Positions 23,944 through 41,673 of a DNA stretch of 64,000 nucleotides are shown here, piece after piece. The position numbers and the translations under genes are program-made. Location: positions 32,001-96,000 of the forward strand of contig JBLNCY010000006.1 of NCBI GenBank assembly GCA_050261115.1. The letters are read 5' to 3'. This stretch comes from Methanocella sp. (lineage in GTDB: Archaea; Thermoproteota; Bathyarchaeia; Bathyarchaeales; Bathycorpusculaceae). Numbering within the stretch: position 1 is the first letter of the stretch; each line of letters starts with the position of its first letter. Below the pieces are notes generated by a model, which saw nothing but the letters and a program-made list of their open reading frames with translations, did no database searches and was not told the DNA's origin.

Positions 23944-25365
23944 TTGCACGACAAAAAAATCCTACTCAAAGAAACAGACATACCAAAACAATGGTATAAC
24001 ATTGTCCCCGACCTGCCACACCCGCTTCCCCCCTTTATAGAGGCGGAAACCGGAAAACCAGGCGTCGGCATCGTCCCAAAAATTTTCCCTAAAGCAATAA
24101 TCGGTCAAGAAGTCAGCCAAGAACGCTGGATAGACATCCCCGACGAGGTCCGAGAAATCTACAAAATATGGAGACCCAGTCCACTCTTCCGCGCCTATGG
24201 CCTCGAGCAGGCACTAAAAACTCCCGCTAAAATCTACTACAAATACGAAGGTACCTCTCCTTCAGGCAGTCACAAAACCAACAGTGCCGTACCCCAAGCC
24301 TACTACAACATGAAAGAAGGCATCACCCGTGTCACCACCGAAACAGGCGCAGGACAATGGGGAAGCGCACTAAGCTTCGCAGCAAGCGTCTTTGGATTAG
24401 AAGCCACCGTCTACATGGTCCGCGCAAGCTTCGACCAGAAGCCCTATCGCAAAGCCATGATGAACGCATACGGCGCAACCGTCTACGCCAGCCCATCCAA
24501 CAACACACAAGCAGGCAGAAAAATCCTAGCCGAAGACCCACAAACCAAAGGCAGCCTCGGCATCGCAATCAGCGAAGCAATAGAAGACAGCTTAGAAAGC
24601 GAAAAAACAGGTAAAAAAGCAAACTATACCATCGGATCAGTCTTCAACCACGTCTGCCTACACCAAACCGTCGCCGGACTCGAGGCACAGAAACAATTTG
24701 CCATGATTGACGATTACCCTGATGAGATTTATGGATGCATCGGAGGCGGCAGCAGCTTTAGCGGATTGTTCTGGCCCTTCTACTATGATAAAGTCTCTAA
24801 GAAAGCGCCAAAAGAAACCAAGTTCTTTGCCGTTGAACCCACAGCATGCCCCAAAGTCACAAGGGGATACTACACCTATGATCACGGTGACACATCAAAA
24901 TTAACCCCGCTGGTACCGATGCACACCTTAGGCCATGACTTCATGCCTGCGCCTATCCATGCGGGCGGACTTCGCTACCACGGCATAGCCCCAACCATCA
25001 GCGTACTCGCGCAGGAAAACAAAATCAGCACTATAGCCGTCAACCAAGTTGACGCCTTTGACGCTGCAAAAATGTTCATACGAAGCGAAGGCATCATACC
25101 ATCACCCGAGTCAACGCACGCCATCAAAGCCGTATGTGACCAAGCACGAGCATGCGCACAAACTAATACGCCTAAAACTTTGCTGTTCGCTTTGACGGGT
25201 CATGGTTTCTTTGACATGACCGCTTACGAGGAATACTTTAGCGGTAGACTGCAGCCCTATGAGTATCCAGCTGAGAAAGTGGCTGAATCCATGGAGAAGC
25301 TCCGCAAACTCTACCCGTGGCTAAACGATGTCACAAAACAGTACATAACACCCTGCAAGCAGTAA
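23944..25365 (+). CDS. trpB2: Tryptophan synthase beta chain 2
   Basis: QWYNI, GSHKTNSA PLP lysine, TETGAGQWG, IHAGGLRYHG. Confidence 0.93.
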   Translation: MHDKKILLKETDIPKQWYNIVPDLPHPLPPFIEAETGKPGVGIVPKIFPKAIIGQEVSQERWIDIPDEVREIYKIWRPSPLFRAYGLEQALKTPAKIYYKYEGTSPSGSHKTNSAVPQAYYNMKEGITRVTTETGAGQWGSALSFAASVFGLEATVYMVRASFDQKPYRKAMMNAYGATVYASPSNNTQAGRKILAEDPQTKGSLGIAISEAIEDSLESEKTGKKANYTIGSVFNHVCLHQTVAGLEAQKQFAMIDDYPDEIYGCIGGGSSFSGLFWPFYYDKVSKKAPKETKFFAVEPTACPKVTRGYYTYDHGDTSKLTPLVPMHTLGHDFMPAPIHAGGLRYHGIAPTISVLAQENKISTIAVNQVDAFDAAKMFIRSEGIIPSPESTHAIKAVCDQARACAQTNTPKTLLFALTGHGFFDMTAYEEYFSGRLQPYEYPAEKVAESMEKLRKLYPWLNDVTKQYITPCKQ

Positions 25366-25720
25366 CTTGCAACCCCCCACTATTCTTTTCCTTTTTGCTC
25401 TTTTCTAGTCCAGCATTAAATGCTATGATTTATCTACGCTTAACGACTTTCTAACGTTAACACGTAGTGGAATTTCATAAATGATAAATTGCAATTCGCC
25501 TTAAGAGGTTTTTATGCCAGCTCAAGGTAAGCCATTTCTTGTTGAGAGAAGGCCTGTTTTGTGCCGTTTAGGTATTCATAGCTGGGGGGCGCCGCATGTG
25601 TATGAACCTAATCAATAAGAGTGTGGATGGTTGGGAGAAGAGTTGCCGCCATTGTAACGCGGTCAGGCGTTGGATGCGACGTAAGAGTTACACTTACAAA
25701 GAATATGGGTGTAGTGGAAT

Positions 25721-26692
25721 TTAGACTACAAGGTCAGCCATGTCTACACTGCGCTCATAAATTTGCCGCAGAAACTGAACCACAGCCAAAATCTGAGGCA
25801 ACAAATCCACCGAAGAATCCTTCACAGCCGCCTCAATTCGGGAACAGTTGTCATCGACCTTTCCCCTCATCTCACGAACATTTTCAGCTAGTGCGATATC
25901 CTTACATAAAAAGGCCTTGAACGCTTGCTCATTGGCATCTACACAGGTTGACTGCAACGCCAGCACCAGTCTCCTAAGTTCATCGGATAGCTTAGTGTTC
26001 TTGAGTTCAAGCGTGCTCTGCGCAATCTGAACGCAGGCGTCACCTATACCCTCAATAAAGCCCGCAATAAGACGGTAGTCCACGCATTCAATAGGAATGA
26101 TACCTAGCTTCTCGCTAAGTCGGGGGCTCTGCAAAATAGTACGCAGTATCCTAACAAGCAAAAAATAGAATTTGTTGTTCTCTACATCACGTTCGATAAC
26201 GTTCTTTGCTAAGTCCATATCAGAAGAGACAAAACTGCTAGCCGCATCACGGATCATCCGCACGGCGCTAGCCTGGTTACGCTGCAGGATTTTTCCCGGT
26301 GAAGTGAAGGGTTGCTGCATAAGGCACTGAAGCGTCATCATTGAGGGGGTTTCCTCAACAATCATAAGCCCAGCTAGCGAGTTCGCAGTGGATTTGATGA
26401 GGTTACGCATGTTTGAGTCGATGCGGTCTTTGGCTTCTATTTTTATGATATCATAACCTAAGAGGTAGCGGCCGATGATTTCGCGGCTCAAATAAGGATT
26501 AACCTTTAACGACACAGATTTAGGTTCGGGTTCAGAGGCGAATTGAGTGTCTACAAACAGTTTACCATCGCTGGTTACTTCGAGGTTAACTTGGGAGCCC
26601 TTCTGCAAGTTATGGCTCTTAGCCCATTCACGGGGTAAACAAACAAAAAACGTGCCAGTGGGAGTCTGCTGAATTTTACGCACTTCACTCAT
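25721..26692 (-). CDS. AbrB-PhoU phosphate uptake regulator
   Basis: RKIQQTPTGTFFVCLPREW AbrB domain followed by two PhoU-type helical repeats. Confidence 0.85.
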   Translation of the reverse strand: MSEVRKIQQTPTGTFFVCLPREWAKSHNLQKGSQVNLEVTSDGKLFVDTQFASEPEPKSVSLKVNPYLSREIIGRYLLGYDIIKIEAKDRIDSNMRNLIKSTANSLAGLMIVEETPSMMTLQCLMQQPFTSPGKILQRNQASAVRMIRDAASSFVSSDMDLAKNVIERDVENNKFYFLLVRILRTILQSPRLSEKLGIIPIECVDYRLIAGFIEGIGDACVQIAQSTLELKNTKLSDELRRLVLALQSTCVDANEQAFKAFLCKDIALAENVREMRGKVDDNCSRIEAAVKDSSVDLLPQILAVVQFLRQIYERSVDMADLVV

Positions 26693-26873
26693 AGAGACAC
26701 CAAGTTATAACACATCTAAACAAACCTGTCCCTATATAAATCGTAAGCATCAGGTTACGTCAACCCGGCTAGTAAGCCATACCAACAAGTGTTTTAGGGC
26801 AATGAAAAACAGTAAATAACTCTAAGCCATACTGCCTAACCATCGGAAACATAGTAATCGGGCAGAAGAATGC

Positions 26874-28496
26874 ATGAGTAGGCAAGAGAAACTCCAAAAA
26901 GCCATCGAGGCAGCCATCATTGCCGGCTACCAACTAAACAGCGAAGCTTTTGAGTTCCTTACCCAAAATGTGGACACAATGGACCCCGAAGCCGTAATGA
27001 ATCTAGCATTAATGCAGTTATCTGACTTAGAGGATAAGCCCATCTTCATCGACCGAGATAGACTCGTGTCAGTTATTCATCAATTAGCAGTTGCAGAAAT
27101 GCAACAAGCCTTAGAAAACCAAACCGAAACACAACCAACCAATGAACCCAATCCAGTTAACATATTCCCGGAAGCACAAAGCTACACCGAGCCAACCATA
27201 AACGCGGTCGATGCCAGCGACTACTTTTACCCCTACGCCAAAGACATATCCTCCGAGCTTATAATCATAGAAGACCCCACAGGTAAACTCACCTCAAACG
27301 GAACAATACAAGAATACACAGCGCTCTTCCAAGACCGCTTCAGACGGGTCGAAAAAATACTCCGCAACCGCATGGATGTCCGCTCAGCCACACCGCTAGC
27401 CGAAGCGGTCAAATCCCAACCGAAATCAAAACTCAAAGTCATCTGCATGCTAACAGAAAAACGCGACAGCAAAAACAACACCATCCTCTCAGTTGAAGAC
27501 CCAAACAGCAGCGCCACCATCGTCATCCCCCACAAGGCACCTGAAGAAGTAAAAAAGAAGGCACTAACACTATTGCCCGACACCGTCTTTTGTGCGGCAG
27601 TCATCAAAACCCGAACCAATCTGCTCATGGCAGAAGACATTATCCTCCCAGAAGTCGGCCGAAAAGCACCTAAACGGGCCCAAGAACCTGTCTATGCAGT
27701 GCTGACTTCAGATGTACATGTAGGTAGCAATAAATTTACCAAAGATGCATTTCGCCGTTTCATTCTTTGGCTAAGAGGTAAGTATGGCACCCCACAAATG
27801 CGTGAAGTCGCAGGCCGCGTCAAGTACCTCTTAATCGCAGGTGACATCGTCGACGGCGTAGGTATTTATCCCGGTCAACAAACAGAACTCACCATACGTG
27901 ATGTACGCAAGCAATACAACTTTGCCATCAAATATCTAGAAAAAATACCCAGCTACATAGAAATCGTGCTCTCACCAGGCAACCACGACGCCGCGCGTAA
28001 ATCCCAACCTCAGCCAGCCATCCCAGAAGGATACCTAACCGCAATCAAAGATAAACCAAACATTCACTCTGTTGGCAGCCCCTGCTACCTAAGCATACAT
28101 GGCGTTGAAGTCTTGATGTATCACGGTGTAAGCCTAAATGACATCATAGGGGTAGTGCCGGGGATGGATAATGATCATCCTGAGAAGTCCATGAGGCTAC
28201 TTATGCAGGATCGCCACTTGGCACCTATGTATGGCGGTAAAACCATGCTTTCGCCTGAGAACCGCGACTATATGGTTGTCGAGCGAGTCCCCGACATCTT
28301 TCATGCGGGTCACATTCACGTTTTAGGCTACTGTAACTATCGGGGGGTACTTGTAGTTAATTCGGGGGGCTGGCAACTGCAGACTGAGTATATGGAAAAG
28401 TTAGGGCTGATGCCTACGCCTGGGAAGGTTCCTGTAATCAACTTGCAAACAATGGAGATTACGGTTCTGGATTTCCTAAACCCCATTGAGAGTTAG
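26874..28496 (+). CDS. polB: DNA polymerase D small subunit DP1
   Basis: SDVHVGS, AGDIVDG, PGNHD, YHG, HAGHIH phosphoesterase motifs; OB fold. Confidence 0.94.
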   Translation: MSRQEKLQKAIEAAIIAGYQLNSEAFEFLTQNVDTMDPEAVMNLALMQLSDLEDKPIFIDRDRLVSVIHQLAVAEMQQALENQTETQPTNEPNPVNIFPEAQSYTEPTINAVDASDYFYPYAKDISSELIIIEDPTGKLTSNGTIQEYTALFQDRFRRVEKILRNRMDVRSATPLAEAVKSQPKSKLKVICMLTEKRDSKNNTILSVEDPNSSATIVIPHKAPEEVKKKALTLLPDTVFCAAVIKTRTNLLMAEDIILPEVGRKAPKRAQEPVYAVLTSDVHVGSNKFTKDAFRRFILWLRGKYGTPQMREVAGRVKYLLIAGDIVDGVGIYPGQQTELTIRDVRKQYNFAIKYLEKIPSYIEIVLSPGNHDAARKSQPQPAIPEGYLTAIKDKPNIHSVGSPCYLSIHGVEVLMYHGVSLNDIIGVVPGMDNDHPEKSMRLLMQDRHLAPMYGGKTMLSPENRDYMVVERVPDIFHAGHIHVLGYCNYRGVLVVNSGGWQLQTEYMEKLGLMPTPGKVPVINLQTMEITVLDFLNPIES

Positions 28497-29716
28497 GTTT
28501 TGTGGAGGCTTTTTGGCTGATAATTTAGCAGAGGGCCAAAACGTGCGTCTGTACCAAATACATCTTTTATTAAGCCACGGCTAATTTCAAGACGAATCTT
28601 CTTAGTTCGCCCATACCGGCCCATGCTAACAACTTTGGCGTTGACAAGCCCCATAGAATCAAGCTCGTTTACAAGCGTTCCGAGGCGTCGCTGGGTAAGT
28701 AATCCTGCGCCCATTTCGCCACAGAGTTCATTGTATATGTCATAGATTTCTCCTGTGGATGCACTGTGCTTGTTGAGGTGATATACGCTTAGCAGGACAA
28801 GTTTTGAGTGCAACGTCAAGTTTTTTAGAGCTTCGATTACACGGTTGTGTTCTATGTGTTTTTCAGCTTGGCGAACGTGTTCTTCTGTGATGGTGGTTGC
28901 ACCGTTCCGTTCGGCTACTTCACCGGCTACTCTGAGCAGGTCTAGAGCTCTTCTGGCATCGCCATGCTCTGCTGCGGCCAAGGCTGCGGATATGCTAAGT
29001 GCAGACTCAGTCAAAGCACCATCCATAAATGCAAGCTTTGATCGTTCAAACAAAATATTTCGGAGTTCGCTTGCATCGTAGGGTCGGAATACGAGTTCTT
29101 CTTCACTTAAGGAGCTGAATACACGGGGGTCTAGGAATTCTTTTAGGCGGAGGTCGTTTGATATGCCGATGATTGAGACTTTGCTTTTGTTGAGTGTTTC
29201 GTTGATGCGGGTGAGTTCGTACATGAAGGCGTCGCCTCGGTCTTTTATGAGGGCATCTACCTCGTCTAGTACGATGATGAATATAATGTAAGATTGGTCT
29301 AGGCCTGAGCGGAATCTATCGAAAACTTCGCCGACTGACAACCCAGTAAAGGGAATGGATAGCCCAACACTTTGGCTAAGGGCGGCAAAAACGCGGTATT
29401 CTGAACCGGTCATGCGGCAGTTTATGTAACAGAATTTTATTTGGGCCCCATACTCTTTGGCTTTTGATTCGAGGTGGCTAAGGACGTATTTGGCTACTGC
29501 GGTTTTTCCTGTGCCGGTTTTGCCGTAGATGAATATGTTTGAGCAGCGGGCATTTCTTAGTACAGGGGCTACTGTGGATCCTAGGAGTCGGATTTGTTCT
29601 TCTCGGTGGGGGAGCTTTTCTGGTAGATAGTCATGTCTTAGGACTTCGCGGTCTTTGAAGAGTCTTGGGCCTTTTACGAAATTGTCAAACACATCATCAA
29701 GTACAGAGTTTCCCAT
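28493..29716 (-). CDS. cdc6: Orc1/Cdc6 replication initiator
   Basis: LPHREEQI, GKTGTGKT, VLDEVD, HGDARRALDLLR, C-terminal wH GRYGRT. Confidence 0.96.
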   Translation of the reverse strand: MGNSVLDDVFDNFVKGPRLFKDREVLRHDYLPEKLPHREEQIRLLGSTVAPVLRNARCSNIFIYGKTGTGKTAVAKYVLSHLESKAKEYGAQIKFCYINCRMTGSEYRVFAALSQSVGLSIPFTGLSVGEVFDRFRSGLDQSYIIFIIVLDEVDALIKDRGDAFMYELTRINETLNKSKVSIIGISNDLRLKEFLDPRVFSSLSEEELVFRPYDASELRNILFERSKLAFMDGALTESALSISAALAAAEHGDARRALDLLRVAGEVAERNGATTITEEHVRQAEKHIEHNRVIEALKNLTLHSKLVLLSVYHLNKHSASTGEIYDIYNELCGEMGAGLLTQRRLGTLVNELDSMGLVNAKVVSMGRYGRTKKIRLEISRGLIKDVFGTDARFGPLLNYQPKSLHKT

Positions 29717-29747
29717 TGTTTGCCCACCCTATTTTTTTTCAGAGGTA

Positions 29748-30336
29748 CAACCGTTATTTCGAGTGGAACAGATAAAGGCTACAGTACAAAAAAATGGTTT
29801 TGAACAACAACATTCCTAAAAGAAGACAAAAACAGGCAGAAACAACCTATCAACCCAAGGATAGACTCACCCGTTGATTTCTACTGGAAAAATCAACTAA
29901 CTTTACACTAACCCATATTATAGTATAACATAATAATATACTCTGAGTTGTAAATTAGCTTTGAATATATTAATGATTGTTGTCCAAAAAAATAGATAGA
30001 CTCTCAGAAATTATTTTTCGACCGCTTCTCAACTTCTTTTTTCCCCTAAAACTCTCGAGAGGAAAAAGAGGGGTGCCTCTCTGATCTGAATTCCATGGAA
30101 GAAAGCTTGTAAGCTGTCCCTTTGCTTCAATATTTTGCCATGGCTTGCTTTGCTCCTTACCAAAGTTCGCCTAGTGACCTCTTGATTGCCAGGTTTGGGT
30201 GGCTTAGGGGTTCACAAAACTGTGAATACATGTGAAATAGCAATAAATCTGTAGCTTTATCAAGCTTCTTTTTCGGAGATTTACTTGTTTTCTGTCTGTT
30301 AACAGTGAATGTGGCACCCCTTGGCTTCTACTGGAG
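29748..30336. other. Replication origin oriC (ORBs plus AT-rich DUE)
   Basis: ORB-like boxes: 29748-29769(-) GTTCCACTCGAAATAACGG, 29868-29890(-) TTTCCAGTAGAAATCAACGGG, 30054-30074(+) CTCGAGAGGAAAAAGAGGGGT, 30316-30336(-) CTCCAGTAGAAGCCAAGGGGT; AT-rich 29891-30050 lies between an inverted pair; directly upstream of cdc6. Confidence 0.88.
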
Positions 30337-30530
30337 AACTCGATTTAAGCTGGAAAGATAAATCTTTTAACCGTTTGTTTTTCTGTGAAGCTTGTAATTC
30401 TAAAAACAATTATAAAATAAGTTATTTACTGAAAATAAGCTTGAATTGGGCTTTTTATTTTGGCTGTTTTCACCATCACAGTTATATGCTGTGAAGCTGT
30501 AGAGTTGTGAACAACCTAGGTGTCTAATTA

Positions 30531-30962
30531 GTGCCGACTCGCAAAATGCGCGTGGAGCTCTTTGACAATGAGGGCAATCGGTATACCATTGCCTTTGAGG
30601 GTCAAGTGACCCGCGACAAAGCTCTACGCCTGCTTGATCTTGTTGAATTGCTAGGCGGCACACCGAATGAAACATCAAATATAACAAGTCCAGCAGTACC
30701 CAGTCCTCGTCAACTGTCTCGTTTTGAGAAGGTTCAAGCAGTAATTCAGAAGAATTTCCCCTTAATCTGGTTCTCATCCAAAGACATTCAGGCAGTCTAT
30801 GAGCAGGAATTCAAAGAACCTGTCAGCCTAAGCACCATATCCACCTACCTCTCCAGAATGGCCTCAAAAGGCATGCTTATGCGCACTGGCACCTCCAACA
30901 ACCTCAAGTACAAGACTGCCCCAAACATTCCAGCGACAATCAAGCAGCGTATAATAAAGTAG
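30531..30962 (+). CDS. Origin-adjacent winged-helix DNA-binding protein
   Basis: C-terminal wHTH FSSKDIQAVYEQEFKEPVSLSTISTYLSRMASKG; small N-terminal beta domain. Confidence 0.75.
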   Translation: MPTRKMRVELFDNEGNRYTIAFEGQVTRDKALRLLDLVELLGGTPNETSNITSPAVPSPRQLSRFEKVQAVIQKNFPLIWFSSKDIQAVYEQEFKEPVSLSTISTYLSRMASKGMLMRTGTSNNLKYKTAPNIPATIKQRIIK

Positions 30963-30963
30963 C

Positions 30964-31009
30964 TTCACAAGCCCTTCACAACAGTTCACCACTGTTCACA
31001 GGGTTCACA
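30964..31009 (+). repeat. Helically phased TTCAC(A) direct-repeat array
   Basis: TTCAC at 30964, 30975, 30985, 30995, 31004. Confidence 0.8.
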
Positions 31010-31083
31010 ACATGCTTGTATTAGGTTGACGATTATTGGTAGCTGCCCATATTTTTTAGCATGCTATTTAGTTGAGTTGAGTT

Positions 31084-31155
31084 GCGTCTCTTGCTTTGCC
31101 AAGAGACCCCTCCTTATATATATAGAGTCAACCTCGGGTTGAACCTGGTCTTGAA
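31084..31155 (-). repeat. Dispersed intergenic element, copy B
   Basis: Minus strand reads TTCAACCCGAGGTTGACTCTATATATATAAGGAGGGGTCTCTTGGCAAAGCAAGAGACGC. Confidence 0.8.
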
Positions 31156-31243
31156 AGCATACCTGCAAAAATACTAGCCTCACGGAACCCTTTAGTAGTA
31201 AAGCCCAGGAGACTGTCTATTTTGCAGTGGAAAATAAATTCGG

Positions 31244-32125
31244 CTAGGTTACGGCTGGCGAAGGCTCTGTCTTCTGCAGCAGGGCCTCCATCTCCTTTTT
31301 AATTGTATATCGGAACGGAATCTTACCAGCCTCCCTCTCCACATAACCTTCCTCATAAATCCTTTTCATCAACCTAGCCGTATGCTCCCTGCTCAAGCCA
31401 AGACGCTCTTTAATTTCCGGTGCAGTCTTAGCGCCCTCCTTAGAGAGCATCTCCAGCACTGCAATCTCTGTCTCGGTCAACGCTGCAAGAGCCTTGTCAC
31501 GTTTGATAGGAACAACCGGAAGCGCCATTTCACTTCGAGCCTCTATTGGAGCCGGCGGGGCAGTAGCTAACTTTTGGAGTTGTTCTTCCAACATAGCAAT
31601 TTTTTGTTGCATGGCTTGCTGGGCATTTTGTGCCTCTTGGAGTTTTGCTTGGAGGGTTGCCATTTCGTTTGTGAGCTCTGATTTTAGGGTTGTATTGTTT
31701 TGTGTGATTTCTGCCAAGTTTGCTGTGACGTCCTGGGTTAGAGTTTGATGTATTTGGTTAAGGGCGATGATCTGGGTTTCCAAGGGGTCGATTAGGTTCT
31801 CTAGCCGTTCGGCCTTTCGGTAGCTGGCTTCTGCGGTGGAGTAGCTGCCCTCAACTCTTGTCACCATATTATCAAATTTTTCTGATTGACGTTTTAATTC
31901 ACGGTTAAAACTAAGCACTATATCGCCCAAGAAATCTTTGGCTTTAGCGTATTCTTGTAGGCTCTGTTCATATTGTAGATGAGTTTTTGCGTATTCCTGC
32001 TGGGTTAGCTCATATACTCGGTGAACTTTGCGGATTTGACGGTAGTATTCATATCCTGCTATTGCTGTGACAGCTAATAGCACGCCAAAGATTACTACTG
32101 TTAGGTCAACCGTGATGCTCTCCAC
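31244..32125 (-). CDS. Membrane-anchored coiled-coil protein with C-terminal winged HTH
   Basis: N-terminal TM (VVIFGVLLAVTAIAGY), about 160 aa heptad-rich region, LTETEIAVLEML...APEIKERLGLSREHTARLMKRIYEEGYV. Confidence 0.8.
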   Translation of the reverse strand: MESITVDLTVVIFGVLLAVTAIAGYEYYRQIRKVHRVYELTQQEYAKTHLQYEQSLQEYAKAKDFLGDIVLSFNRELKRQSEKFDNMVTRVEGSYSTAEASYRKAERLENLIDPLETQIIALNQIHQTLTQDVTANLAEITQNNTTLKSELTNEMATLQAKLQEAQNAQQAMQQKIAMLEEQLQKLATAPPAPIEARSEMALPVVPIKRDKALAALTETEIAVLEMLSKEGAKTAPEIKERLGLSREHTARLMKRIYEEGYVEREAGKIPFRYTIKKEMEALLQKTEPSPAVT

Positions 32126-32466
32126 CTGTGATTTTTTCGTGATTCAACCGTGATTGTCACGTGATTATGATGATTTGTGATGATTACATGTGACATTAAC
32201 AGTTGCGTCACATATCACAAGTATCTCCATGGAAATTTAAGCCTATCGGTGACATTTTTCCATGAATTCATGACGTCACACATCACGGAAAACCGAATTA
32301 ATGCTTCTGTGATATCTATCCTTGGTTAAAGAGGCTTAATTTAAGCTTATTTTGTCGAAATAACTGTTATATTGGAGCTTGTGTGATGTGTGATAAACTA
32401 CCCCAAAATAGTGCAAAAATAATGGAAAAATTCGTGATTTGTGACGTCACAAAGGCTCTTGTGATG
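32111..32466. repeat. Dense GTGAT/GTGAC motif cluster
   Basis: About 20 GTGAY/RTCAC copies in ~350 bp by manual count; GTGAT at 32128, 32139, 32150, 32161 (11-bp period). Confidence 0.85.
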
Positions 32467-32944
32467 GGCTAGAAAGCCGTTTTAGGCTTGTTTCGAGCTC
32501 ATTTCTGATGATTTCTATGACTTTTGCATGGTCTTTTAGTTCCTCTTCCTTGCTGGGTAGGTTAGAGTGTGCGTCGACATAATCGTGCAGTTTATTGGCT
32601 ATTTCTAAGTACGGGTCAAGAGTTGTGGTCTCAAAAACGCCCAAATAACCTAAAAGAAGTACTGTGTAAATGGATTTTATGACGTTTTCTCTGGACTGTT
32701 TTAAAGTCCTATTAAACGAACCGCGGCTTATTTTAGCCCTTGTTAGGCGTAAGGCTGCTTTTTCATCGTATTTTAGCTCTTTGCCTGCTATATTTTCCGA
32801 TAAAATGTCAATGAGTAGCGTTTCGAGCTGTGTTTTTGTTAATTGGCTGTTTTTAGCCAGTATTTGTACAATAGGGTCTTTTAATGCTCCGTTTAACCAT
32901 GCTGTAACGCCGTCTTTTAGCTTCAAATCTCGTGATTCCTCCAT
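32447..32944 (-). CDS. Putative HTH DNA-binding protein (Tfx/sigma-region-4-like pattern)
   Basis: LTKTQLETL...YDEKAALR...ISRGSFNRTLKQSRENV resembles a tri-helical HTH. Confidence 0.6.
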   Translation of the reverse strand: MEESRDLKLKDGVTAWLNGALKDPIVQILAKNSQLTKTQLETLLIDILSENIAGKELKYDEKAALRLTRAKISRGSFNRTLKQSRENVIKSIYTVLLLGYLGVFETTTLDPYLEIANKLHDYVDAHSNLPSKEEELKDHAKVIEIIRNELETSLKRLSSPSQEPL

Positions 32945-33288
32945 ACCTTAAATGGATACAGTTTTGTATACCCACTCGGGTTTTTATCCTTTCGAAGCCC
33001 TCCTGACCCCAAAAACCGCTTGTTAAAGCAGATAAATTAGCCGTAAAAATGCAAATAACGCCTAAAAATTGAATTATTATTAAAAACAACGCTAAATTGG
33101 TACAGTTAACATAATAACGACTAAATCCTCGGTAATTTTATCGCTAAAAATGCCTGAACTTTACACAAAAAATGCACTTTTGCAAACGCCCACAACCCGC
33201 TAACCTCACCAGTTTTAACATACTCAGCACAATTAAACACACTTTTCAACCCCTAATCTAGCACCAAAACACATTTTTAGAAACCCAG

Positions 33289-33406
33289 CTCACAGTTCAC
33301 AATCCCGAAAAACCACGTGATATCACCAAAAAATGCGTGATTTTAGCCTTAAACCACTTGATATCACAGCGTTGTGATGCACCTGTGATGCCCAAATACC
33401 CATGGA
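33289..33406. repeat. Second GTGA/TCAC motif cluster
   Basis: About 8 copies in ~100 bp including GTGATATCAC and TGATATCA palindromes, ending in CCATGGA. Confidence 0.75.
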
Positions 33407-33424
33407 GAACTTGTGGCATTCACT

Positions 33425-34258
33425 CTAAATCTGCTCAGACAACCGCCTTAGCTGGTCATAAAGCTCTGGGCGAAGGTCCCGTAAGGTCGGAATAAAGGTC
33501 TCAGCAGTACGCAAATCGCCAAAATCAACCTCACAAAACACAAAATCCTCCTCATCATACCTTGCCCTAGCTAAAACGTCCCCTGTTGGGCTCACAACGC
33601 GGCTTCCACCCCAAAACTGCAAGCCATCCTCAACGCCTGCAAGGTTAACGTAGGCTAAATAGCAAGTGTTTTCCAAGGCCCGTGCCGCGGTAAGAACCTC
33701 AAAGTAGCTTCTGCGTACCGCTGGCGAAGCAGAAATGCAAATTATGAGTTGAGCCCCCTTCAGTCGGGATAGCCGAAAGACTTCGGGGAAGAAAACATCA
33801 TAGCAGATGGTTAGGCCGATGTTGCCGAGTTCAGTTTGGAAGGCGGCTGGTTCATATCCGGGCCGAAAATAGCGTTTCTCCTCAAACACGCTATGCGTTG
33901 GAAGATACATCTTGCGGTACTTGCCAATAAAGCCGTTTGGTCCCACTAGGACGGCGGTATTATAGATTGTCGCTTGGGTCTTCTCGCTTAGCTCTGGTAA
34001 CCCAAAGACGATGTGTATGCCTGTTTTCTTAGCTATCTCTTCAACTTTCGCTGTGCTAGGTCCGGGGACTGGTTCGGCTAGCGTGTACACTTGGTCTCGC
34101 AGTACATAGCCGGTAAGGCACATTTCAGGGAAAACAGCCAAGTCCACGCCCTCGGCTTTTGCCCTCTGGGTTAATTCTTCGATTTTTGCTAGGTTTGCGT
34201 TTTTGTTTTCTCGTTGGGGTGCGATTTGGCAGAGGGCAAGCTTGATTCTGGCTTTCAT
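33425..34258 (-). CDS. Carbon-nitrogen hydrolase (nitrilase superfamily)
   Basis: VFPEM, YRKMYLP, ICYD catalytic E-K-C triad; start MKARIKLALCQ. Confidence 0.9.
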   Translation of the reverse strand: MKARIKLALCQIAPQRENKNANLAKIEELTQRAKAEGVDLAVFPEMCLTGYVLRDQVYTLAEPVPGPSTAKVEEIAKKTGIHIVFGLPELSEKTQATIYNTAVLVGPNGFIGKYRKMYLPTHSVFEEKRYFRPGYEPAAFQTELGNIGLTICYDVFFPEVFRLSRLKGAQLIICISASPAVRRSYFEVLTAARALENTCYLAYVNLAGVEDGLQFWGGSRVVSPTGDVLARARYDEEDFVFCEVDFGDLRTAETFIPTLRDLRPELYDQLRRLSEQI

Positions 34259-34268
34259 GCTATTCCCT

Positions 34269-35111
34269 TTAGTATGTGTGTCTGGGTAGCCTAAAATCGT
34301 TTCCCGGAGTTCTAAACCCCAGTTTAGGTGACAGCGGCGTGCGCCGTTTATGCTCGGTTGCAAGGATGCGGGCTTGGACGCGATCAACGATTGCCTGTTC
34401 TATGTTTAGTTGCTCAGCGATTTCTTGTGGTTTCATGAACCGTTCTAGGCCGTAGAGAATCAAATCCAGCGTTTCGTATTTGATTTCGAGTTCTCCCTCT
34501 GCGGTTTGGTTTGGCCAAAGCGAGGGGGTTGCGGGTTTGAGCGCGAGTTCCTTTGGAATTCCAACGTGCATGGCTAGCCGTCGGACTTGGGTTTTGTAGA
34601 GGTCGATGATGGGTGTGATGTCTGCTGCGGCGTCACCCCATTTGGTAAAGTAGCCCATGTAGGTCTCGGACTTGTCTGAGGTGCCCGCGACGATTCGGCT
34701 TTGGTTATTTGCGTAGTAGTAGAGAATTATCATGCGGGTGCGGGCTTTGATGTTTCCTTTGCAGAGCCGCTCAGTTGGGTTGAATTCTGGAATACCCTTG
34801 TAGAATTCCTCAAGGATACTGCTCATATTCACGGTTTGGGTTTGAAGGTGGAATAGGTCAGCTATGGTTTTTGCGTCGTCGAGGTCTTGCTGCCGAAAAG
34901 TTTCCTTCTCAGGCATTATGAGGGCTAGCACGTTTTCTCCTCCGATGGCAAGGCTTGAGAGTGCGGCTGTGACGGCGCTATCCACACCGCCTGAGAGACC
35001 CAGCACGATGCCTTTGGCGTCTGCGTTTTCTACGTATTCTTTGATAAAGCGGCAGATGCGGTTTTGCACTTCAGAGAAGTCGAGTTCCAATACTTGGGGG
35101 GTTAACTTCAA
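34269..35111 (-). CDS. nadE: NAD+ synthetase
   Basis: LGLSGGVDSA, GNIKARTRM, GYFTKWGD, DLYKTQV, TEHKR. Confidence 0.95.
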   Translation of the reverse strand: MKLTPQVLELDFSEVQNRICRFIKEYVENADAKGIVLGLSGGVDSAVTAALSSLAIGGENVLALIMPEKETFRQQDLDDAKTIADLFHLQTQTVNMSSILEEFYKGIPEFNPTERLCKGNIKARTRMIILYYYANNQSRIVAGTSDKSETYMGYFTKWGDAAADITPIIDLYKTQVRRLAMHVGIPKELALKPATPSLWPNQTAEGELEIKYETLDLILYGLERFMKPQEIAEQLNIEQAIVDRVQARILATEHKRRTPLSPKLGFRTPGNDFRLPRHTY

Positions 35112-35205
35112 GGTTTAGGCAGCCTCACTGTGAAGGTTAGTAGGCAAGTATTTAAGCAGAAGGATAAATATTAATGACTACATCCAAAACTATGAAGGAA
35201 AATTT

Positions 35206-35475
35206 ATGGGGCGAAGAAGGAAAAAAGTAGTTCATGTTCCAAAGAAAAAGTTACCAAAGTTCTTCTCTTGCCCTAGGTGTGGTAAAGCAACCGTCCGAGT
35301 AGAAATCAATCGTGAGGAAGGCGGACGGGCCGTTGCACAATGTAGTAGCTGCGGACTTAGGGAAGAATTCACAGTAAAATCCGCACAAGGCGAAGTTGAT
35401 GTTTACTGCATGCTAACGGATAGAGTCTACGCTAATTTAAAGCGGACTCCCATAACTAAGGCTAAAGAAGAATAA
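35206..35475 (+). CDS. elf1: Transcription elongation factor Elf1
   Basis: MGRRRKK, LPKFFSCPRC...CSSCG, EVDVY. Confidence 0.85.
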   Translation: MGRRRKKVVHVPKKKLPKFFSCPRCGKATVRVEINREEGGRAVAQCSSCGLREEFTVKSAQGEVDVYCMLTDRVYANLKRTPITKAKEE

Positions 35476-35490
35476 ACTGACGGATGCTCA

Positions 35491-36243
35491 ATGGCTGGGC
35501 CCATAGAACGGTACTTGCTCGACAAAATCAAGGTCGATGGCTCAATCCATATGACGCTCATTGACCCCGAAAAAGTAACCGCAGAGGAAGCAGCAAGTAT
35601 CGCCCAAAGCGCCAGCAACAGCGGAACCGCAGCCATAATGATTGGCGGCTCAACGGTATCCTCCCAGAAGCAACTCGATGAAGTAGTTCAAGCGATAAAA
35701 GCCGCGGTGGCGACGCCGACGATTCTTTTTCCAGGCAACGTCAACGGGATTAGCAGAAACGCTGACGCCATCTGGTTTATGTCGATGCTGAACTCCACCG
35801 ACCCCTACTTTTTGATGGGCGCCCAAATCATAGGCGCACCATACATAAAAAAATTCAACATCGAACCCCTATCAATGGGCTATATAATTGTGGGTGACGG
35901 CGGCACAGTGGGTAAAGTCGGTAAAGCCATCCCTATTTCGTATAGCAACCCTGAGCTAGCCGTGGCACATGCCCTTGCAGGTCAATACTTGGGCATGCGC
36001 TTTATCTATCTTGAAGGCGGCTCAGGCGTAAAGGTTCCTGTCCCCACAGATATGATTCGCGCGGTTAAGCAGACAATTGATATCCCCTTAATCGTCGGAG
36101 GCGGCATTCGTACCCCTGAGGCTGCAGCGGTCGCGGCTGATGCAGGAGCCGACATCATCGTCACAGGTAACCTCATCGAAACAAGCGAAGGCACCCAACG
36201 AGTGGCCCAGATAGTCAAGGCCATCAAACACAGACGCGCTTAA
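35491..36243 (+). CDS. Geranylgeranylglyceryl phosphate synthase
   Basis: LIDPEK, MIGGST, ILFPG, YLEGGSG, VGGGIR, IVTGN. Confidence 0.93.
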   Translation: MAGPIERYLLDKIKVDGSIHMTLIDPEKVTAEEAASIAQSASNSGTAAIMIGGSTVSSQKQLDEVVQAIKAAVATPTILFPGNVNGISRNADAIWFMSMLNSTDPYFLMGAQIIGAPYIKKFNIEPLSMGYIIVGDGGTVGKVGKAIPISYSNPELAVAHALAGQYLGMRFIYLEGGSGVKVPVPTDMIRAVKQTIDIPLIVGGGIRTPEAAAVAADAGADIIVTGNLIETSEGTQRVAQIVKAIKHRRA

Positions 36244-36315
36244 GTTCTTTTGTGATTTGTTTTCGAAAGCCCAAAATACCCTTTAGTCATTACTGTTGGG
36301 CAGTGACGCGGCAAC

Positions 36316-39300
36316 TTGAACATCAACCAGGGCATAAGTAAAAGCTACCGATCCTACGTCGAGGGCTTGGAGGCAGAACTCAAGCACCTCTATGAAATCA
36401 GCGACGCCGCCAGATCCCTAGGCTTAGACCCCGCCCTAAAAACCGAATGCTTGGTTGCACAGGACATAGCTGACCTCGTAGAGGGTCTAGTGGGACCCAC
36501 AGGCGTCGCAGTCAGCATCCGCGAACTCAGCAAAAAAATGCCCCGCGAAGAAATCGCCTTCTATGCCGCCAAAGAGATTGCAGAGGGCAAATTCGCCCAA
36601 ACCGACGAAGAGCGCCAACCTGAACAGCTAGCAGAGCAAGCTATTCGGACGGCACTGGCCATTTTTACCGAAGGCTTAACCGCCGCTCCCATCCAGGGCA
36701 TTGCGCATGTGAAGATTAAGAAGAACGCTGACCAGACACGATATTTAGCGGTTTACTTCGCAGGACCAATCCGCTCTGCTGGCGGAACAGACCAAGCCCT
36801 AACTCTGGTCGTTGCCGACTACGTAAGGCGCGCCTTGGGGTTGGATGTGTATAAGCCCACCGAAGAAGAAGTCTCCCGCTTCATAGAGGAGCTTCGACTC
36901 TACGAGCGCAGTGTAGGCCGCTTCCAGTACCACATTCCCGATGAGGAACTCCGCAAGGCACTCAACATCGTCCCCGTCGAATGCACGGGCACCGAATCCG
37001 ACCCCGTCGAAGTCTCCTCCTACCGCAACCTGGACCGCGTGGAAACTAACCGCGTCCGGGGCGGCGCCCTAAGAGTCATTAACGACGGCATTGTAGGCCG
37101 GGCCCAGAAAGTCTGGGTTGTCTGCGACAAAATCGGTTTTCATGAATGGGATTGGCTTAAGAATTTTAAAAAGAAGTCTGAGAAGAAATCCGCGGGCTTC
37201 ATGGATGATGTCATCGCTGGTCGCCCCATTTTCGCTTTTCCCTCCACCCGGGGCGGCTTTAGACTTCGATATGGCCGCTCACGCAACACAGGCCTCTCCG
37301 CGGTGGGTATCCACCCTGCCACTATGGCTGTTGTGGAGGGGTTTTTGGCTGCTGGAACACAGATGCGTCTAGAGTTGCCCGGCAAAGGCGGCGTCACCCT
37401 GCCAGTAGATTACATAGAAGAGCCCGTGGTGCTGCTCAAAGATAACTCTGTTGTCCGCGTCTCCCTAACAAAGCTGCCAGATGTCAAAGGCAAAATCGCA
37501 AAAATCCTCTTTCTAGGAGACATGCTTATCGACTTTGGCGACTTCCTCTACAGTAACAAAACCCTAATTCCCTCTGGCTATGTGGAGGAATGGTACTGCC
37601 AAGACCTCAACAACGCGGTACTGTCCCTCTTTGGCGGCGATTTAGAGAAGGCTGCGGAGGCTTGCGGCCTCTCATCTAAGCGCCTAGATGCCCTTATCCA
37701 TGACCCTTTCAAGAACAAACCCAACATCAAAGAGGCATCTGCGCTCTGTCGAGCCCTCGGCGTTCCACTGGCGCCTAACTGCCTACATTACTGGAGTAAT
37801 CTGGCAACCGTTGCAGAGGTTGAGTTGATGCGTAAGTGGCTAGCTAGCTGTGATGTCACCGAAGCAGACGACGTGGGTTGCAGGATCACAGGCGCCGCAG
37901 GCAACGATGTTGTTACGGCTCTGCGGAAGGCCTTCATACCTCACAAGTACCTCGAGGGCAAAGTTACTATCCAGGGTCAAGATGCTGCCTCGTTTGCGTT
38001 CACGCTTGGGTATGGATCGTCAGGGCTAACTGAGCCGTTCCAAGCAGAAACCGTGCTCGAATTGTTGTCCAAGACCTCTGGCGTAATGATCAAGGATAAG
38101 GCTCCAACGTATGTGGGTGGACGTATGGGGCGTCCTGAGAAAGCCAAGCACCGTGATATGCGTCCTTTGGTGCATGTGCTTTTTCCTGTGGGGCTTGCAG
38201 GTGGTAGTCACCGTGATCTCTGTGCTGCAGCTAAAAAAAGCGCCGTGTTTGTTGAGATGGTTAAACGCAAATGCCCCGAATGCAAAACTTACACTATAAA
38301 ACTCAAATGTGACGCTTGCGGTGTACCGACAATTCAGGAAAAAACTTGCCCCCGATGCGGCCGTTCTTTAAAGGATAGCTACTGCGGGTCATGTAAAGCT
38401 GACGCGGTTCTCTATCAGCGTCAACCCGTTAATTTTAAGCACCTCATCGATGGTGCATGCGCTACTCTTGGTTGTTCCCCGCCCAAGATGCTTAGAGGCG
38501 TAAAAGGCTTAACAAACCTTGACAAAACCCCCGAGATGCTCGAGAAAGGGATACTGCGCGCCAAGTACGGGGTTTCAACCTACAAAGATGGCACAACTCG
38601 CTTCGACGGTACCAACGCCCCCCTTACCCATATCACTCCTGAAGAAATCGGCGTCTCTGTTGAGAAGATGCATCAGATGGGCTACCACTATGACACGCAT
38701 GGCTTGCCATTAACTCACCCTTCTCAGGTTTGTGAACTTAAAATCCAAGACGTCGTCATCCCCCGAAAAGCAGGCGACTATCTCCTCCGCGTCGCAGGGT
38801 TTGTCGATGAGTTGCTTGAGAAAGTCTACAAGCTCCCACCCTACTACAAAGCCACCAAACCCGAAGACATGGTGGGTCAGCTTATCTTTGGGCTTGCCCC
38901 TCACACCTGCGCCTGCATCCTTGGCCGTATCGTAGGCTACACAGATCGCAACCTCATCTATGCGCATCCAGTTTGGCACTCTGCTAAACGCCGAGACTGC
39001 GACGGCGACGAAGACGCCATTATGCTAGCGTTAGATACGCTTTTGAATTTTTCAAAGGTTTTCTTACCTAGCCAAATCGGCGGTATCATGGATGCTCCTA
39101 TCCTTATGTTGCCTTTCTGCAATACCAGGGAGGTTCAGCGTCAGGCCCACGACTTTGACGTTAGCCAAATTTACCCAGTGGAGTTCTATCGTAAAACTTG
39201 GGAGAAAGGCGAATCCCGTACCGTAAGTGCCGTTATGGATGTAATTAGCCACCGTCTTGGTACTGAGGGCCAATTTGAGGGTTACCAGTTCACTGTGCCC

Positions 39301-39747
39301 ACCACCAACATCAACTTGGGTAACGCTAATAGTAGCTACAAAGAGTTCAAGTCCATGACCGATAAACTCAACATGCAGTTGGGGCTAGCTGAAAAGATTG
39401 AAGCCGTCGACGCTAGGCGCGTGGCGCTTAAGGTTCTCAACTGCCACCTGATGCGTGACATTGCTGGCAACATGCGCGCTTTTTCCACCCAAGGGTTCCG
39501 ATGCAAATCATGTAACGGGAAATACCGGCGTCTTCCCCTTGCGGGTAAATGTACTCGCTGCGGTGGAGAGTTGACATTGACTGTCTACCGGGGAAACATT
39601 GAGAAATACCTCAAAGCCGCCCACAACCTAGTCGATAAGTATGGCCTGCCAAACTATTACACGCAACGTATGGATCTTATTCAGGAGGAAATCACCCTTA
39701 TGTTTGATAACAAGAAGCCTAAACAAACCAAGCTTTTCGACTTTTAA
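36316..39747 (+). CDS. polC: DNA polymerase D large subunit DP2
   Basis: AGPIRSAGGT, GGFRLRYGR, GRMGRPEKA, KRRDCDGDED catalytic motif, zinc fingers; no intein evident. Confidence 0.97.
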   Translation: MNINQGISKSYRSYVEGLEAELKHLYEISDAARSLGLDPALKTECLVAQDIADLVEGLVGPTGVAVSIRELSKKMPREEIAFYAAKEIAEGKFAQTDEERQPEQLAEQAIRTALAIFTEGLTAAPIQGIAHVKIKKNADQTRYLAVYFAGPIRSAGGTDQALTLVVADYVRRALGLDVYKPTEEEVSRFIEELRLYERSVGRFQYHIPDEELRKALNIVPVECTGTESDPVEVSSYRNLDRVETNRVRGGALRVINDGIVGRAQKVWVVCDKIGFHEWDWLKNFKKKSEKKSAGFMDDVIAGRPIFAFPSTRGGFRLRYGRSRNTGLSAVGIHPATMAVVEGFLAAGTQMRLELPGKGGVTLPVDYIEEPVVLLKDNSVVRVSLTKLPDVKGKIAKILFLGDMLIDFGDFLYSNKTLIPSGYVEEWYCQDLNNAVLSLFGGDLEKAAEACGLSSKRLDALIHDPFKNKPNIKEASALCRALGVPLAPNCLHYWSNLATVAEVELMRKWLASCDVTEADDVGCRITGAAGNDVVTALRKAFIPHKYLEGKVTIQGQDAASFAFTLGYGSSGLTEPFQAETVLELLSKTSGVMIKDKAPTYVGGRMGRPEKAKHRDMRPLVHVLFPVGLAGGSHRDLCAAAKKSAVFVEMVKRKCPECKTYTIKLKCDACGVPTIQEKTCPRCGRSLKDSYCGSCKADAVLYQRQPVNFKHLIDGACATLGCSPPKMLRGVKGLTNLDKTPEMLEKGILRAKYGVSTYKDGTTRFDGTNAPLTHITPEEIGVSVEKMHQMGYHYDTHGLPLTHPSQVCELKIQDVVIPRKAGDYLLRVAGFVDELLEKVYKLPPYYKATKPEDMVGQLIFGLAPHTCACILGRIVGYTDRNLIYAHPVWHSAKRRDCDGDEDAIMLALDTLLNFSKVFLPSQIGGIMDAPILMLPFCNTREVQRQAHDFDVSQIYPVEFYRKTWEKGESRTVSAVMDVISHRLGTEGQFEGYQFTVPTTNINLGNANSSYKEFKSMTDKLNMQLGLAEKIEAVDARRVALKVLNCHLMRDIAGNMRAFSTQGFRCKSCNGKYRRLPLAGKCTRCGGELTLTVYRGNIEKYLKAAHNLVDKYGLPNYYTQRMDLIQEEITLMFDNKKPKQTKLFDF

Positions 39748-39798
39748 TGGCTAAACCTTTTCAATGATAACACACCTTAATCAGTTCGGTGACGTGGT

Positions 39799-40059
39799 AT
39801 CAGGCAAACTTGGCACCCCAACGCATACCTCAAAACAGTTCGTAACGTGCGTAGCGGTCTTGCTGCAAGAACTAAAATCCTGATGCTTCTTGACTTGCAG
39901 GGGTTGGGTGCAGGCAAAATCTCCAAGGAATCAAAGCTTAGTTACAAAGTAGTGATGTACCACTTGCGGCTGCTGAGGGCTGAGGGTACTGTGGAGCGCC
40001 ATGGCGATCGTCGCTATGTTTGGTTGTCGAGTGGGCTTGGGCAGACACGACTATCTTAG
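39799..40059 (+). CDS. Small ArsR-like winged-helix protein (start uncertain)
   Basis: RTKIL...ISKESKLSYKVVMYHLRLLRAEGTV; frame stays open upstream of GTG 39847 to an ATC at 39799 following GGTGA. Confidence 0.65.
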   Translation: MRQTWHPNAYLKTVRNVRSGLAARTKILMLLDLQGLGAGKISKESKLSYKVVMYHLRLLRAEGTVERHGDRRYVWLSSGLGQTRLS

Positions 40060-40352
40060 AATGTGCACTGGCAGGGTGCGCTTTGGCATTTAGGGCACCT
40101 GTTTGGGTACTTCGATAGAGCCGCTTTTTCGAGGTCTATGCCCATAATGTTGGCAAGCGACGCTAGCCACGCTAAGACATCGGCGAATTCTTTTTCTGTT
40201 GATTCTCTGTCGTTGCCCTTGAATTCCTGTCCGAGTTCGGCGACTTCTTCAAGGAGCCAGTTGTAGGTGCCGTCTAATCCGCGGGCGCGGTCTCGGTTGC
40301 CGTAGAGGCGGTTCATCATCTCCTGAAATTCACTTATATGCATATGATTCAT
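40056..40352 (-). CDS. MazG-like nucleotide pyrophosphohydrolase
   Basis: WLLEEVAEL, EFADVLAWLASLAN, C-terminal CPKC..PCQC. Confidence 0.85.
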   Translation of the reverse strand: MNHMHISEFQEMMNRLYGNRDRARGLDGTYNWLLEEVAELGQEFKGNDRESTEKEFADVLAWLASLANIMGIDLEKAALSKYPNRCPKCQSAPCQCTF

Positions 40353-41635: not shown

Positions 41636-41673
41636 CTACCACTCTCTTTTTTCCTAACAAAAGCGTTGTTCAA

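Follow-up and report, generated by a model that had tools for sequence, protein, structure and literature searches.

A conserved array of short GTGAY sites, predicted to bind protein, precedes the gene of a probably membrane-anchored winged-helix protein beside a probable replication origin in Bathyarchaeia

The pho box is described as a pair of 11-bp direct repeats, in each of which the core is conserved and the rest varies, and it is bound by the winged-helix protein PhoB (PMC2648988). ToxR, a transmembrane winged-helix factor, is reported to bind at several places close to the transcription start, where its sites are arranged in tandem or as inverted repeats (PMC10629549), and at parC of plasmid R1 two sets of five 11-bp iterons are described around the par promoter, where ParR both represses and partitions (PMC2241845). 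Among the archaea, the TGM operator of TrmBL1/Tgr in Thermococcales is given as TATCAC-N5-GTGATA, and the same review of the TrmB family associates a site downstream of the TATA box with repression and a site upstream of it with activation (PMC4158304). Archaeal replication origins are described as inverted origin recognition boxes (ORBs) that flank AT-rich DNA, with the ORB core TTCC...GAA (PMC1904270). The subject of the present analysis is a cluster of GTGAY motifs (RTCAC on the opposite strand) within a 64-kb stretch of DNA, hereafter the window, which the Pfam scan of its open reading frames (ORFs) and the names of the homologues of its flanking genes identify as archaeal chromosome from the Bathyarchaeia. 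The cluster occupies the gap separating two minus-strand genes, P0241 (upstream) and P0242 (downstream), the homologues of both being named Bathyarchaeota or Bathyarchaeia. It is a real and strongly conserved array of short predicted protein-binding sites in front of the P0242 gene, beside a probable replication origin. It misses at least one defining feature of each of the families named above, and is best called an operator-type array that is unusual in its architecture and in the protein encoded beside it.

An initial annotation, made from the sequence of the window alone, had counted about 20 GTGAY sites in 350 bp. The exact number, with both strands counted, is 20 between positions 32112 and 32465, where about 1.1 would be expected per 355 bp; the window as a whole contains 203 sites, with a shuffle expectation of 189 ± 12. 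The sliding count proposed in that annotation, run here on the 64-kb window in 355-bp stretches at 1-bp steps, peaks at the array with 20 sites, and the runner-up outside 31700-32900 has 6, which form a sister cluster at 33317-33389. Dinucleotide-preserving shuffles, 200 in number, had 5.5 sites on average in their best 355-bp stretch and never more than 8. Pairs of the form GTGAY-N6-GTGAY, with 11 bp from start to start, occur four times in the window against 0.27 expected, three of them in the array and one in the sister cluster (33374). All four GTGAT starts previously listed as an 11-bp phased run (32128, 32139, 32150 and 32161) are present, and the palindromic pairings quoted alongside them were located in the array as GTCACGTGAT (32156-32165), TGACGTCACA (32271-32280) and GTGACGTCAC (32441-32450). 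Only two of the 20 sites are coding: that at 32461 falls inside the P0241 gene and is not conserved, and the one at 32112, in the first codons of P0242, is conserved.

The 12-mer GTGAYNTGTGAY has four exact copies in the window, every one of them in the array, and two copies with one mismatch outside it, at 9606 and 15737. Tandem Repeats Finder reported three tiny rows only, and the 11-bp run was not among them because the repeat consists of no more than a 5-6 bp core. A CRISPR or tandem repeat was accordingly rejected. A mobile element was likewise ruled out, as the array locus showed no DNA similarity to plasmids or phages and P0241 had no match in plasmids. A scan for bacterial promoters and terminators gave no more matches than the shuffles, the models being bacterial and not applicable to archaea.

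Conservation was assessed in 80 loci carrying P0241, one genome per species and 2.5-12.5 kb each. For the alignments, the window was combined with 36 of these loci (37 sequences), picked down the list for a full-length P0241 match in the standard position, and motifs were scanned in the window together with about 0.95 Mb of related loci. Mean column identity was 64% in the array alignment (A1) and 58% in that of the sister cluster; the GTGAY blocks are invariant, and the DNA between the motifs varies in both sequence and length. The constancy of the motifs while the intervening DNA has diverged shows the motifs to be under selection. The 12-mer GTGAYNTGTGAY was found in all 80 loci, with every match inside the array or the sister cluster, and it is confined to these places in the DNA scanned. 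In L004, the two clusters contain 24 of the 52 GTGAY sites of a 12.5-kb locus.

Three double sites, here called A, B and C, recur in the arrangement A(-), B(+), C(+) in 78/80 loci; L047 and L056 have no exact B, and C is present in all 80. The distance from A to B ranges from 146 to 175 bp over the loci and that from B to C from 67 to 71 bp. Direct GTGAY pairs show a marked preference for spacings near one helical turn. At 11 bp there are 264 matches distributed over 80/80 loci, 260 of which fall in the two clusters (the four strays are in L001, L018, L049 and L078), and at 10 bp there are 77 in 51 loci. The numbers drop to 37 at 12 bp (34 loci, with about half of the matches at an unrelated coding site near 2720-2790) and to 4 at 13 bp (4 loci). 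An 11-bp pair is kept within the array in 78/80 loci, the exceptions being L017 and L023. The preference for 11 and 10 bp over 12 and 13 bp fits the proposal of the initial annotation that the sites lie on one face of the helix. Its view of the stretch as a binding-site array rather than a CRISPR is also supported, with motifs, order and spacing retained in 78-80 of the 80 relatives across diverged intervening DNA.

The half-site is about 6 bp long, TGTGAT or ATCACA, and occurs in both orientations, and in each of the double sites A, B and C two half-sites are combined with an internal spacing of 7 bp. Site A (32434-32451, minus strand; TGTGACGTCACAAATCAC) consists of a double GTGAY site together with the palindrome GTGACGTCAC and holds the TGA stop codon of P0241; its block is invariant in 37/37 aligned sequences and has the 12-mer in 80/80 loci. 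The AT-rich spacer between A and B carries TATA-like element 1 (32334-32353, minus strand; AAAATAAGCTTAAATTAAGC), a putative promoter element that coincides with a conserved AAAATAAGCnTAAAT block (A1 columns ~145-165). Within the same spacer there is an extra double site, GTGATGTGTGAT (32383-32394, plus strand), which is shared by some relatives only: an equivalent match near 6551-6570 was found just in L001, L002, L006, L010, L012 and L015. Site B (32271-32287, minus strand; CGTGATGTGTGACGTCA) is a double site, invariant in the alignment, and forms with site A an inverted repeat whose arms are 94% complementary and 145 nt apart.

Downstream of B, a single GTGAC site, ATGTCACCGATAG, is followed by TATA-like element 2, GCTTAAATTT (together 32233-32255, minus strand), and by CCATGG at 32228-32233; in alignment A1 these form the conserved block rTCACCGATAACCTTAAA...CCATGG. 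Site C (32203-32219, minus strand; TGTGATATGTGACGCAA), a double site within the invariant block TGTGATGTGTGATGCAAC, lies just downstream of TATA-like element 2, at the place where a transcription start would be expected. Hence B, about 30 bp upstream of the conserved TATA-like box, and C, between the box and the P0242 gene, bracket that box, and from its place between the two sites the region of TATA-like element 2 is likely to be the core promoter of the P0242 gene. A run of AATCAC units then extends over 32128-32194 (minus strand), read on the plus strand as GTGAT or GTGAC at 32128, 32139, 32150, 32161, 32177 and 32190 with GTCAC at 32156. Finally, the 5' end of the P0242 gene (32105-32127, minus strand) comprises a Shine-Dalgarno-like sequence, AGGTGGAG, the conserved ATCACGGTTGAC and one more ATCAC site.

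This order is common to 37/37 sequences. In the sense of the genes it runs from site A as TGTGAYGTCACAAATCAC (at the P0241 stop) through the AT-rich spacer with AAAATAAGCnTAAAT to site B as TGTGATGTGTGAYGTCAT, then through the single rTCACCG, the TATA-like box CCTTAAA... and CCATGG to site C as TGTGATGTGTGATGCAAC, and from there through the AATCAC run and a G-rich ribosome-binding site to ATCACGGTTGAC at the 5' end of P0242. The length of the AATCAC run differs between genomes, with two units in many relatives (e.g. L013, L019 and L025) and about seven in the window, L001 and L002 (A1 columns 309-378), which shows the long 11-bp run to have expanded, in certain lineages, from a conserved pair of units spaced 11 bp apart. 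The layout of three double sites around promoter-like elements, the sister cluster and the lineage-specific nature of the long run had been overlooked in the earlier reading.

The sister cluster, with its six GTGAY sites (33317-33389, minus strand), lies 0.9 kb from the array, 36-108 bp after the stop codon of a CN-hydrolase gene and some 370-445 bp upstream of the P0241 start, and the P0241 gene is thus bracketed by two GTGAY clusters. In the window the cluster contains ATCACA-N5-ATCACA, TGTGATATCAAGTG, AAATCACG and GGTGATATCAC. Its layout, ATCACA-N5-ATCACA, TGTGATATCAAGTGAT, AAATCAC(n)GTGATTT and GTGAYGTCAC, is invariant in 37/37 sequences, and its 11-bp pair is kept in 80/80 loci.

The gene downstream of the array encodes P0242, a protein of 293 aa (31244-32125, minus strand) that consists of a hydrophobic N-terminal helix, a long helix, a Pro-rich linker and a C-terminal winged helix-turn-helix domain of the MarR/TrmB type. 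This is the sole confident DNA-binding domain at the locus. It was matched by Pfam MarR (PF01047) with 31.5 bits (cut-off 24.6) and by TrmB (PF01978) with 30.6 bits (cut-off 25.6), and as both models match the same stretch the domain is not TrmB-specific. The 17 Pfam families that P0242 matched with E up to 0.01 do not include the OmpR/PhoB-type C-terminal domain. No TrmB sugar-binding effector domain was found with Pfam either, the winged helix being preceded by one long helix. The AlphaFold2 model gave a single helix over residues 2-188, mostly with a pLDDT >90, before the Pro-rich linker. The N-terminus has a hydrophobic stretch followed by basic residues, suggesting that P0242 is probably membrane-anchored, and a rod-like helix of about 165 residues would then separate the anchor from the DNA-binding domain. 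Among 15 homologues the winged helix is nearly invariant and the helical rod variable. The recognition-helix pattern of P0242 was found downstream of the array in 77/80 loci, two of the three misses being truncated contigs.

P0242 has a probable non-AUG start. The putative start codon (32113-32111, minus strand; A1 columns 403-405), which stands before a conserved GTT GAC and about 6 nt downstream of the G-rich ribosome-binding site, is ACG in 33/37 sequences, ATG in three (L014, L024 and L027) and GCG in one (L038). In L004, the stretch from the in-frame stop to this codon is free of ATG, GTG and TTG. The N-termini of the P0242 family are ragged in database gene calls: some calls begin within the hydrophobic helix, and one reaches back through the repeats.

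A cis-regulatory role of the array, with some protein bound to it, is very probable. Our favoured reading of how, to which we give somewhat less than an even chance, takes the array for an operator that P0242, by cooperative binding along one helix face, would use to regulate its own gene. Dimers of the binder would occupy the double sites A, B and C, and further copies would add cooperatively along one helix face, over half-sites spaced at 10-11 bp. The bound array would cover the transcription start and the leader as far as the ribosome-binding site and the start codon, leading to repression of the P0242 gene. The most likely binder is P0242 itself, and with P0242 as binder the gene would set its own level; the near-invariance of its winged helix, which matches the invariance of the DNA motif, was counted in favour of this assignment. 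So were the precedents for winged-helix proteins on 11-bp direct repeats (PhoB) and, in a membrane-bound form, on tandem and inverted sites (ToxR), together with the association in archaea of repression with sites downstream of the TATA box and of activation with sites upstream of it. The sister cluster could be bridged to the array, looping out P0241. The sites with their conservation, order and spacing and the surrounding genes are observed; protein binding, the identity of the binder, the promoter assignment, repression and looping are in each case predicted.

Several observations weigh against autoregulation by P0242. Its winged helix was modelled with low confidence (pLDDT 33-64 over residues 190-293) and has no close solved relative, the best being MarR with E = 0.004. 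Two other conserved neighbours, P0241 and a 143-aa protein, are possible binders. A simple operator model does not account for the distance of some 370-445 bp that separates the sister cluster from the next start codon downstream. Moreover, the 80 loci all belong to one clade (P0241 identity 81-93%) and are, as such, not independent samples.

The closest parallels in the layout of the DNA are PhoB and ToxR. The array has a core of about 6 bp repeated at 11 bp, as in the 11-bp repeats of the pho box, and at the level of the DNA it has the direct-repeat spacing of about 11 bp to which a factor of the OmpR/PhoB/ToxR type would bind; as with ToxR, its sites occur in both orientations and lie beside the gene of a probably membrane-anchored winged-helix protein. 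However, the winged helix of P0242 matches MarR/TrmB and not OmpR/PhoB, and the order of its parts is reversed, with the hydrophobic helix N-terminal and the DNA-binding domain C-terminal. Furthermore, P0242 has almost no external part and no receiver domain, and it carries a helix of about 165 residues between anchor and DNA-binding domain. As P0242 is archaeal, its promoter logic would be based on TBP/TFB, unlike that of PhoB and ToxR.

The resemblance to the TGM operator lies in the half-site, which includes GTGAT/ATCAC, in the match of P0242 to the TrmB winged-helix model, and in the placing of sites upstream (activation) and downstream (repression) of the TATA box, which is paralleled by the positions of B and C. 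Nevertheless, TATCAC-N5-GTGATA had no match in the window with up to two mismatches, and the array as a TGM was rejected for want of any such palindrome there. The array differs also in being made of 14-20 half-sites with direct spacings of 7 bp and 10-11 bp, and P0242 in having a hydrophobic helix and long rod instead of a sugar-binding domain. With R1 parC the array shares 11-bp-phased short repeats that flank the (presumed) promoter of a downstream gene. In contrast to parC, it has no actin-like or ParA-like motor gene nearby (16 ORFs, Pfam), it is chromosomal and conserved across 80 species with no plasmid similarity, and its repeats have only a 5-6 bp core and occur in both orientations. 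ParR itself is a ribbon-helix-helix protein, not a winged helix. RacA/ram, Noc, SegAB, ArnR and Sso10a may count as further analogues. A search of the literature, the coverage of which excluded most subscription journals, yielded no earlier description of the array or of a membrane winged-helix protein of this kind.

The strongest alternative to P0242 as binder retains the binding array and assigns it to P0241 or to the 143-aa winged-helix-like protein, an assignment that we consider unlikely. P0241 (165 aa; 32447-32944, minus strand) is an orphan protein much better conserved than its neighbours, at 81-93% identity across 80 species; the protein search returned 2875 hits, and the family comprises 232 representative clusters at 50% identity. 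The two clusters bracket its gene, with the stop codon inside site A and the sister cluster on the upstream side. Its model is confident (pLDDT 89.8) and all-alpha, with seven helices, and the most conserved block, SRGAFNRTLxQARxN, begins a 27-residue helix after a 10-residue loop. Weak partial Foldseek matches were 3vep_A, with a sigma region 4 (probability 0.51), and 8hnp_B, an archaeal transcription factor (0.44), and the ESM Atlas gave only Bathyarchaeota hypothetical proteins, apart from one lead (score 0.78) in a cluster with 14% Sigma70_r4 members. On the other hand, P0241 had no significant match to a DNA-binding family, or to anything else, in Pfam, NCBIfam or PDB sequence profiles, and Foldseek against the PDB gave none with E <1; the geometry of the conserved block is not that of a classic helix-turn-helix, and the proximal promoter of P0241 itself has a different invariant palindrome, ATACAAAACTGTAT. 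The 143-aa protein (30531-30962, plus strand) lies between P0242 and the origin and is conserved, with 77% identity between the window and L026, yet its winged-helix matches (Penicillinase_R, CopY) were below threshold, the Pfam one with 17.6 bits against a cut-off of 22.6.

More distant relatives of P0241 have 30-60% identity. Longer relatives of P0241 showed no informative domains. One of them, P0255 (362 aa), has a P0241-like N-terminal part followed by a hydrophobic helix and a coiled-coil-like tail. It was rejected as a fusion of P0241 with P0242, its tail being unlike P0242, and may be either a real fusion linking the P0241 fold to membrane and rod modules or an artefact of gene calling.

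A probable chromosomal origin lies on the far side of P0242, at 29717-30400, upstream of cdc6. It contains ORB-like elements of the TTCCAGTAGAA type at 29757-29768, 29878-29889 and 30325-30336, of which the second is an exact TTCCAGTAGAAA and the other two are variants, and AT-rich DNA at about 29900-29980; the elements agree with the published core TTCC...GAA (PMC1904270). L004 and L026 have similar ORB and AT-rich elements upstream of cdc6, there with G-strings. The ORB elements are 1.7-2.4 kb from the array, and a distance of 2.4 kb, occupied by the ORB region and two genes, separates the array from the start of cdc6. A Walker-A pattern of Cdc6 was found within the 6-kb flank in 72/80 loci, in 67 of them downstream on the same strand, at 2.45-3.05 kb. 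L004 has the PhoU-DP1-cdc6 block (7820-11988) inverted relative to the window and most loci. This inversion puts the origin upstream of cdc6 at about 5.2 kb from the array and leaves both the GTGAY arrays and the P0241/P0242 pair unchanged. A further ORB-like sequence, TTGCAGTGGAAA, was noted at 31222-31233 (plus strand), just downstream of the P0242 stop and opposite in orientation to the ORBs of the origin; an exact-pattern search did not find it at the equivalent place in other loci.

A second alternative takes up the centromere-like reading of the initial annotation, to which the nearby origin and the probably membrane-anchored neighbour lend some interest. The clusters would be a centromere-like or membrane-tether site, bound by a P0242 that sits in the membrane and carries its winged helix at the tip of a rod some 25 nm long. 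Origin-proximal DNA would thereby be fixed to the envelope for positioning or segregation of the chromosome, with autoregulation as a side effect, as at R1 parC. Consistent with this, P0242 has a hydrophobic N-terminus with basic residues and a long confident helix (residues 2-188), the position of the array near cdc6 and oriC is conserved, and the 12-mer is restricted to this locus in the DNA scanned. Parallels may be drawn to R1 parC, whose repeats are described as serving both repression and partition (PMC2241845), and to ToxR, described as a membrane-bound winged-helix protein with multiple sites that tethers DNA to the membrane (PMC10629549). However, no NTPase of the ParA, ParM, TubZ or SegA type was found among the 16 ORFs scanned around the locus, and sites that bracket a promoter are explained by an ordinary operator with fewer assumptions. 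We regard a tether as improbable. The same low standing is given to its fullest form, in which the P0242 rod would hold the origin region to the membrane (the clusters being 1.7-3.7 kb from oriC), the array would double as operator, and P0241 would be a partner.

That the repeats act as RNA is less probable still. On this account the AAUCAC units of the leader and the GUGAU of site C would form alternative hairpins or bind a protein, and translation from the unusual start codon would be controlled. The AATCAC run does lie between the promoter-like box and the ribosome-binding site, the putative ACG start (33/37) would suit regulated or weak initiation, and RNAalifold pairs site C with the first AATCAC unit. 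Nevertheless, covariation contributes just -0.37 of the -19.29 kcal/mol, nearly all predicted pairs being invariant, and the consensus fold of the sister region reaches only -4.88 kcal/mol with no covariation. Rfam gave no match on 31900-33500 at E up to 1, its only hit at the gathering threshold being a tRNA elsewhere. Moreover, the sites occur in both orientations and extend to site A and the A-B spacer as well as to the sister cluster, the last of which lies in no obvious leader.

The initial annotation had also offered iterons as a reading, which in the sense of replication was not supported, and we think it highly improbable that the array is part of an origin, whether ORB-like or with iterons of the plasmid type, in which A and B would flank an AT-rich unwinding element. 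There is an outward likeness to archaeal oriC: a cluster of short repeats lies near cdc6 (start 2.4 kb off), and A and B form a 17-nt inverted repeat around 145 bp of AT-rich DNA. But the motif is unrelated to the ORB core, and the array lacks that core: TTCCAGTAGAAR, with two mismatches allowed, had 12 matches in the window, none in 32111-32466 and three upstream of cdc6 (29757-30336). A separate probable origin of the ORB type sits directly upstream of cdc6 in the window, L004 and L026, and in L004, with that origin about 5.2 kb away, the array is unchanged. Plasmid iterons have an adjacent Rep initiator gene and near-identical direct repeats of 17-22 bp. Here no Rep family was found among the 16 ORFs scanned with Pfam, the repeat is a core of 5-6 bp, and there is no plasmid or phage similarity. 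The GTGAY array is thus most probably not the replication origin. Least credible of all is an invertible promoter switch, in which the 17-nt inverted repeat A/B would flip the 145-bp segment with its conserved promoter-like box (TATA-like element 1) between the flanking genes, since the AAAATAAGCnTAAAT box has the same orientation in 37/37 genomes, no recombinase is present among the neighbouring ORFs, and the motif occurs also at many non-flanking positions.

The Pfam scan of the neighbourhood covered 16 ORFs from 23944 to 42621. Besides the genes already mentioned, it identified the small subunit of PolD (DP1; 26874-28496, plus strand) and Orc1/Cdc6 (28493-29716, minus strand) on the origin side, and the CN-hydrolase (33425-34387, minus strand), NAD synthase (34269-35111, minus strand), PcrB (35491-36243, plus strand) and the large subunit of PolD (DP2; 36316-39747, plus strand) beyond P0241. 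The palindrome ATACAAAACTGTAT lies at 32956-32969, just upstream of the P0241 start and after a TATA-like AAAGGATAAAAAC, and is invariant in 37/37 sequences; a related palindrome, TTCACAAAACTGTGAA, occurs in the origin region at 30211-30226 and recurs in L004. A second factor may bind to these two. Two further strongly conserved blocks, GTTTGCAAAAGTGCATTTTTTGTGTAAAGTTCAGG and TTAGCCTTTATTATGTTAAC (approximately 33153-33187 and 33100-33135, minus strand), lie in the gap that separates the sister cluster from the P0241 promoter. These had no Rfam match and no conserved RNA structure when the P0241-sense strand was folded, and the ORF list of the window contains no ORF >42 aa wholly inside this gap.

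Bathyarchaeia are abundant and largely uncultured, and their gene regulation and chromosome biology are almost unexplored. The locus described here offers a sharply defined cis-element with a short list of candidate binders, beside a probable origin and the replication genes cdc6, PolD DP1 and DP2, and it draws attention to two conserved uncharacterised proteins and to a probable non-AUG start. If it serves only as an autoregulated operator, the array would still define a clade-wide regulatory motif. If P0242 is the binder, it would provide an entry point to the positioning or regulation of the origin region in an archaeon outside the model groups, and, were the clusters to tether the origin, they would represent a previously undescribed origin-anchoring or centromere-like system of the archaea.

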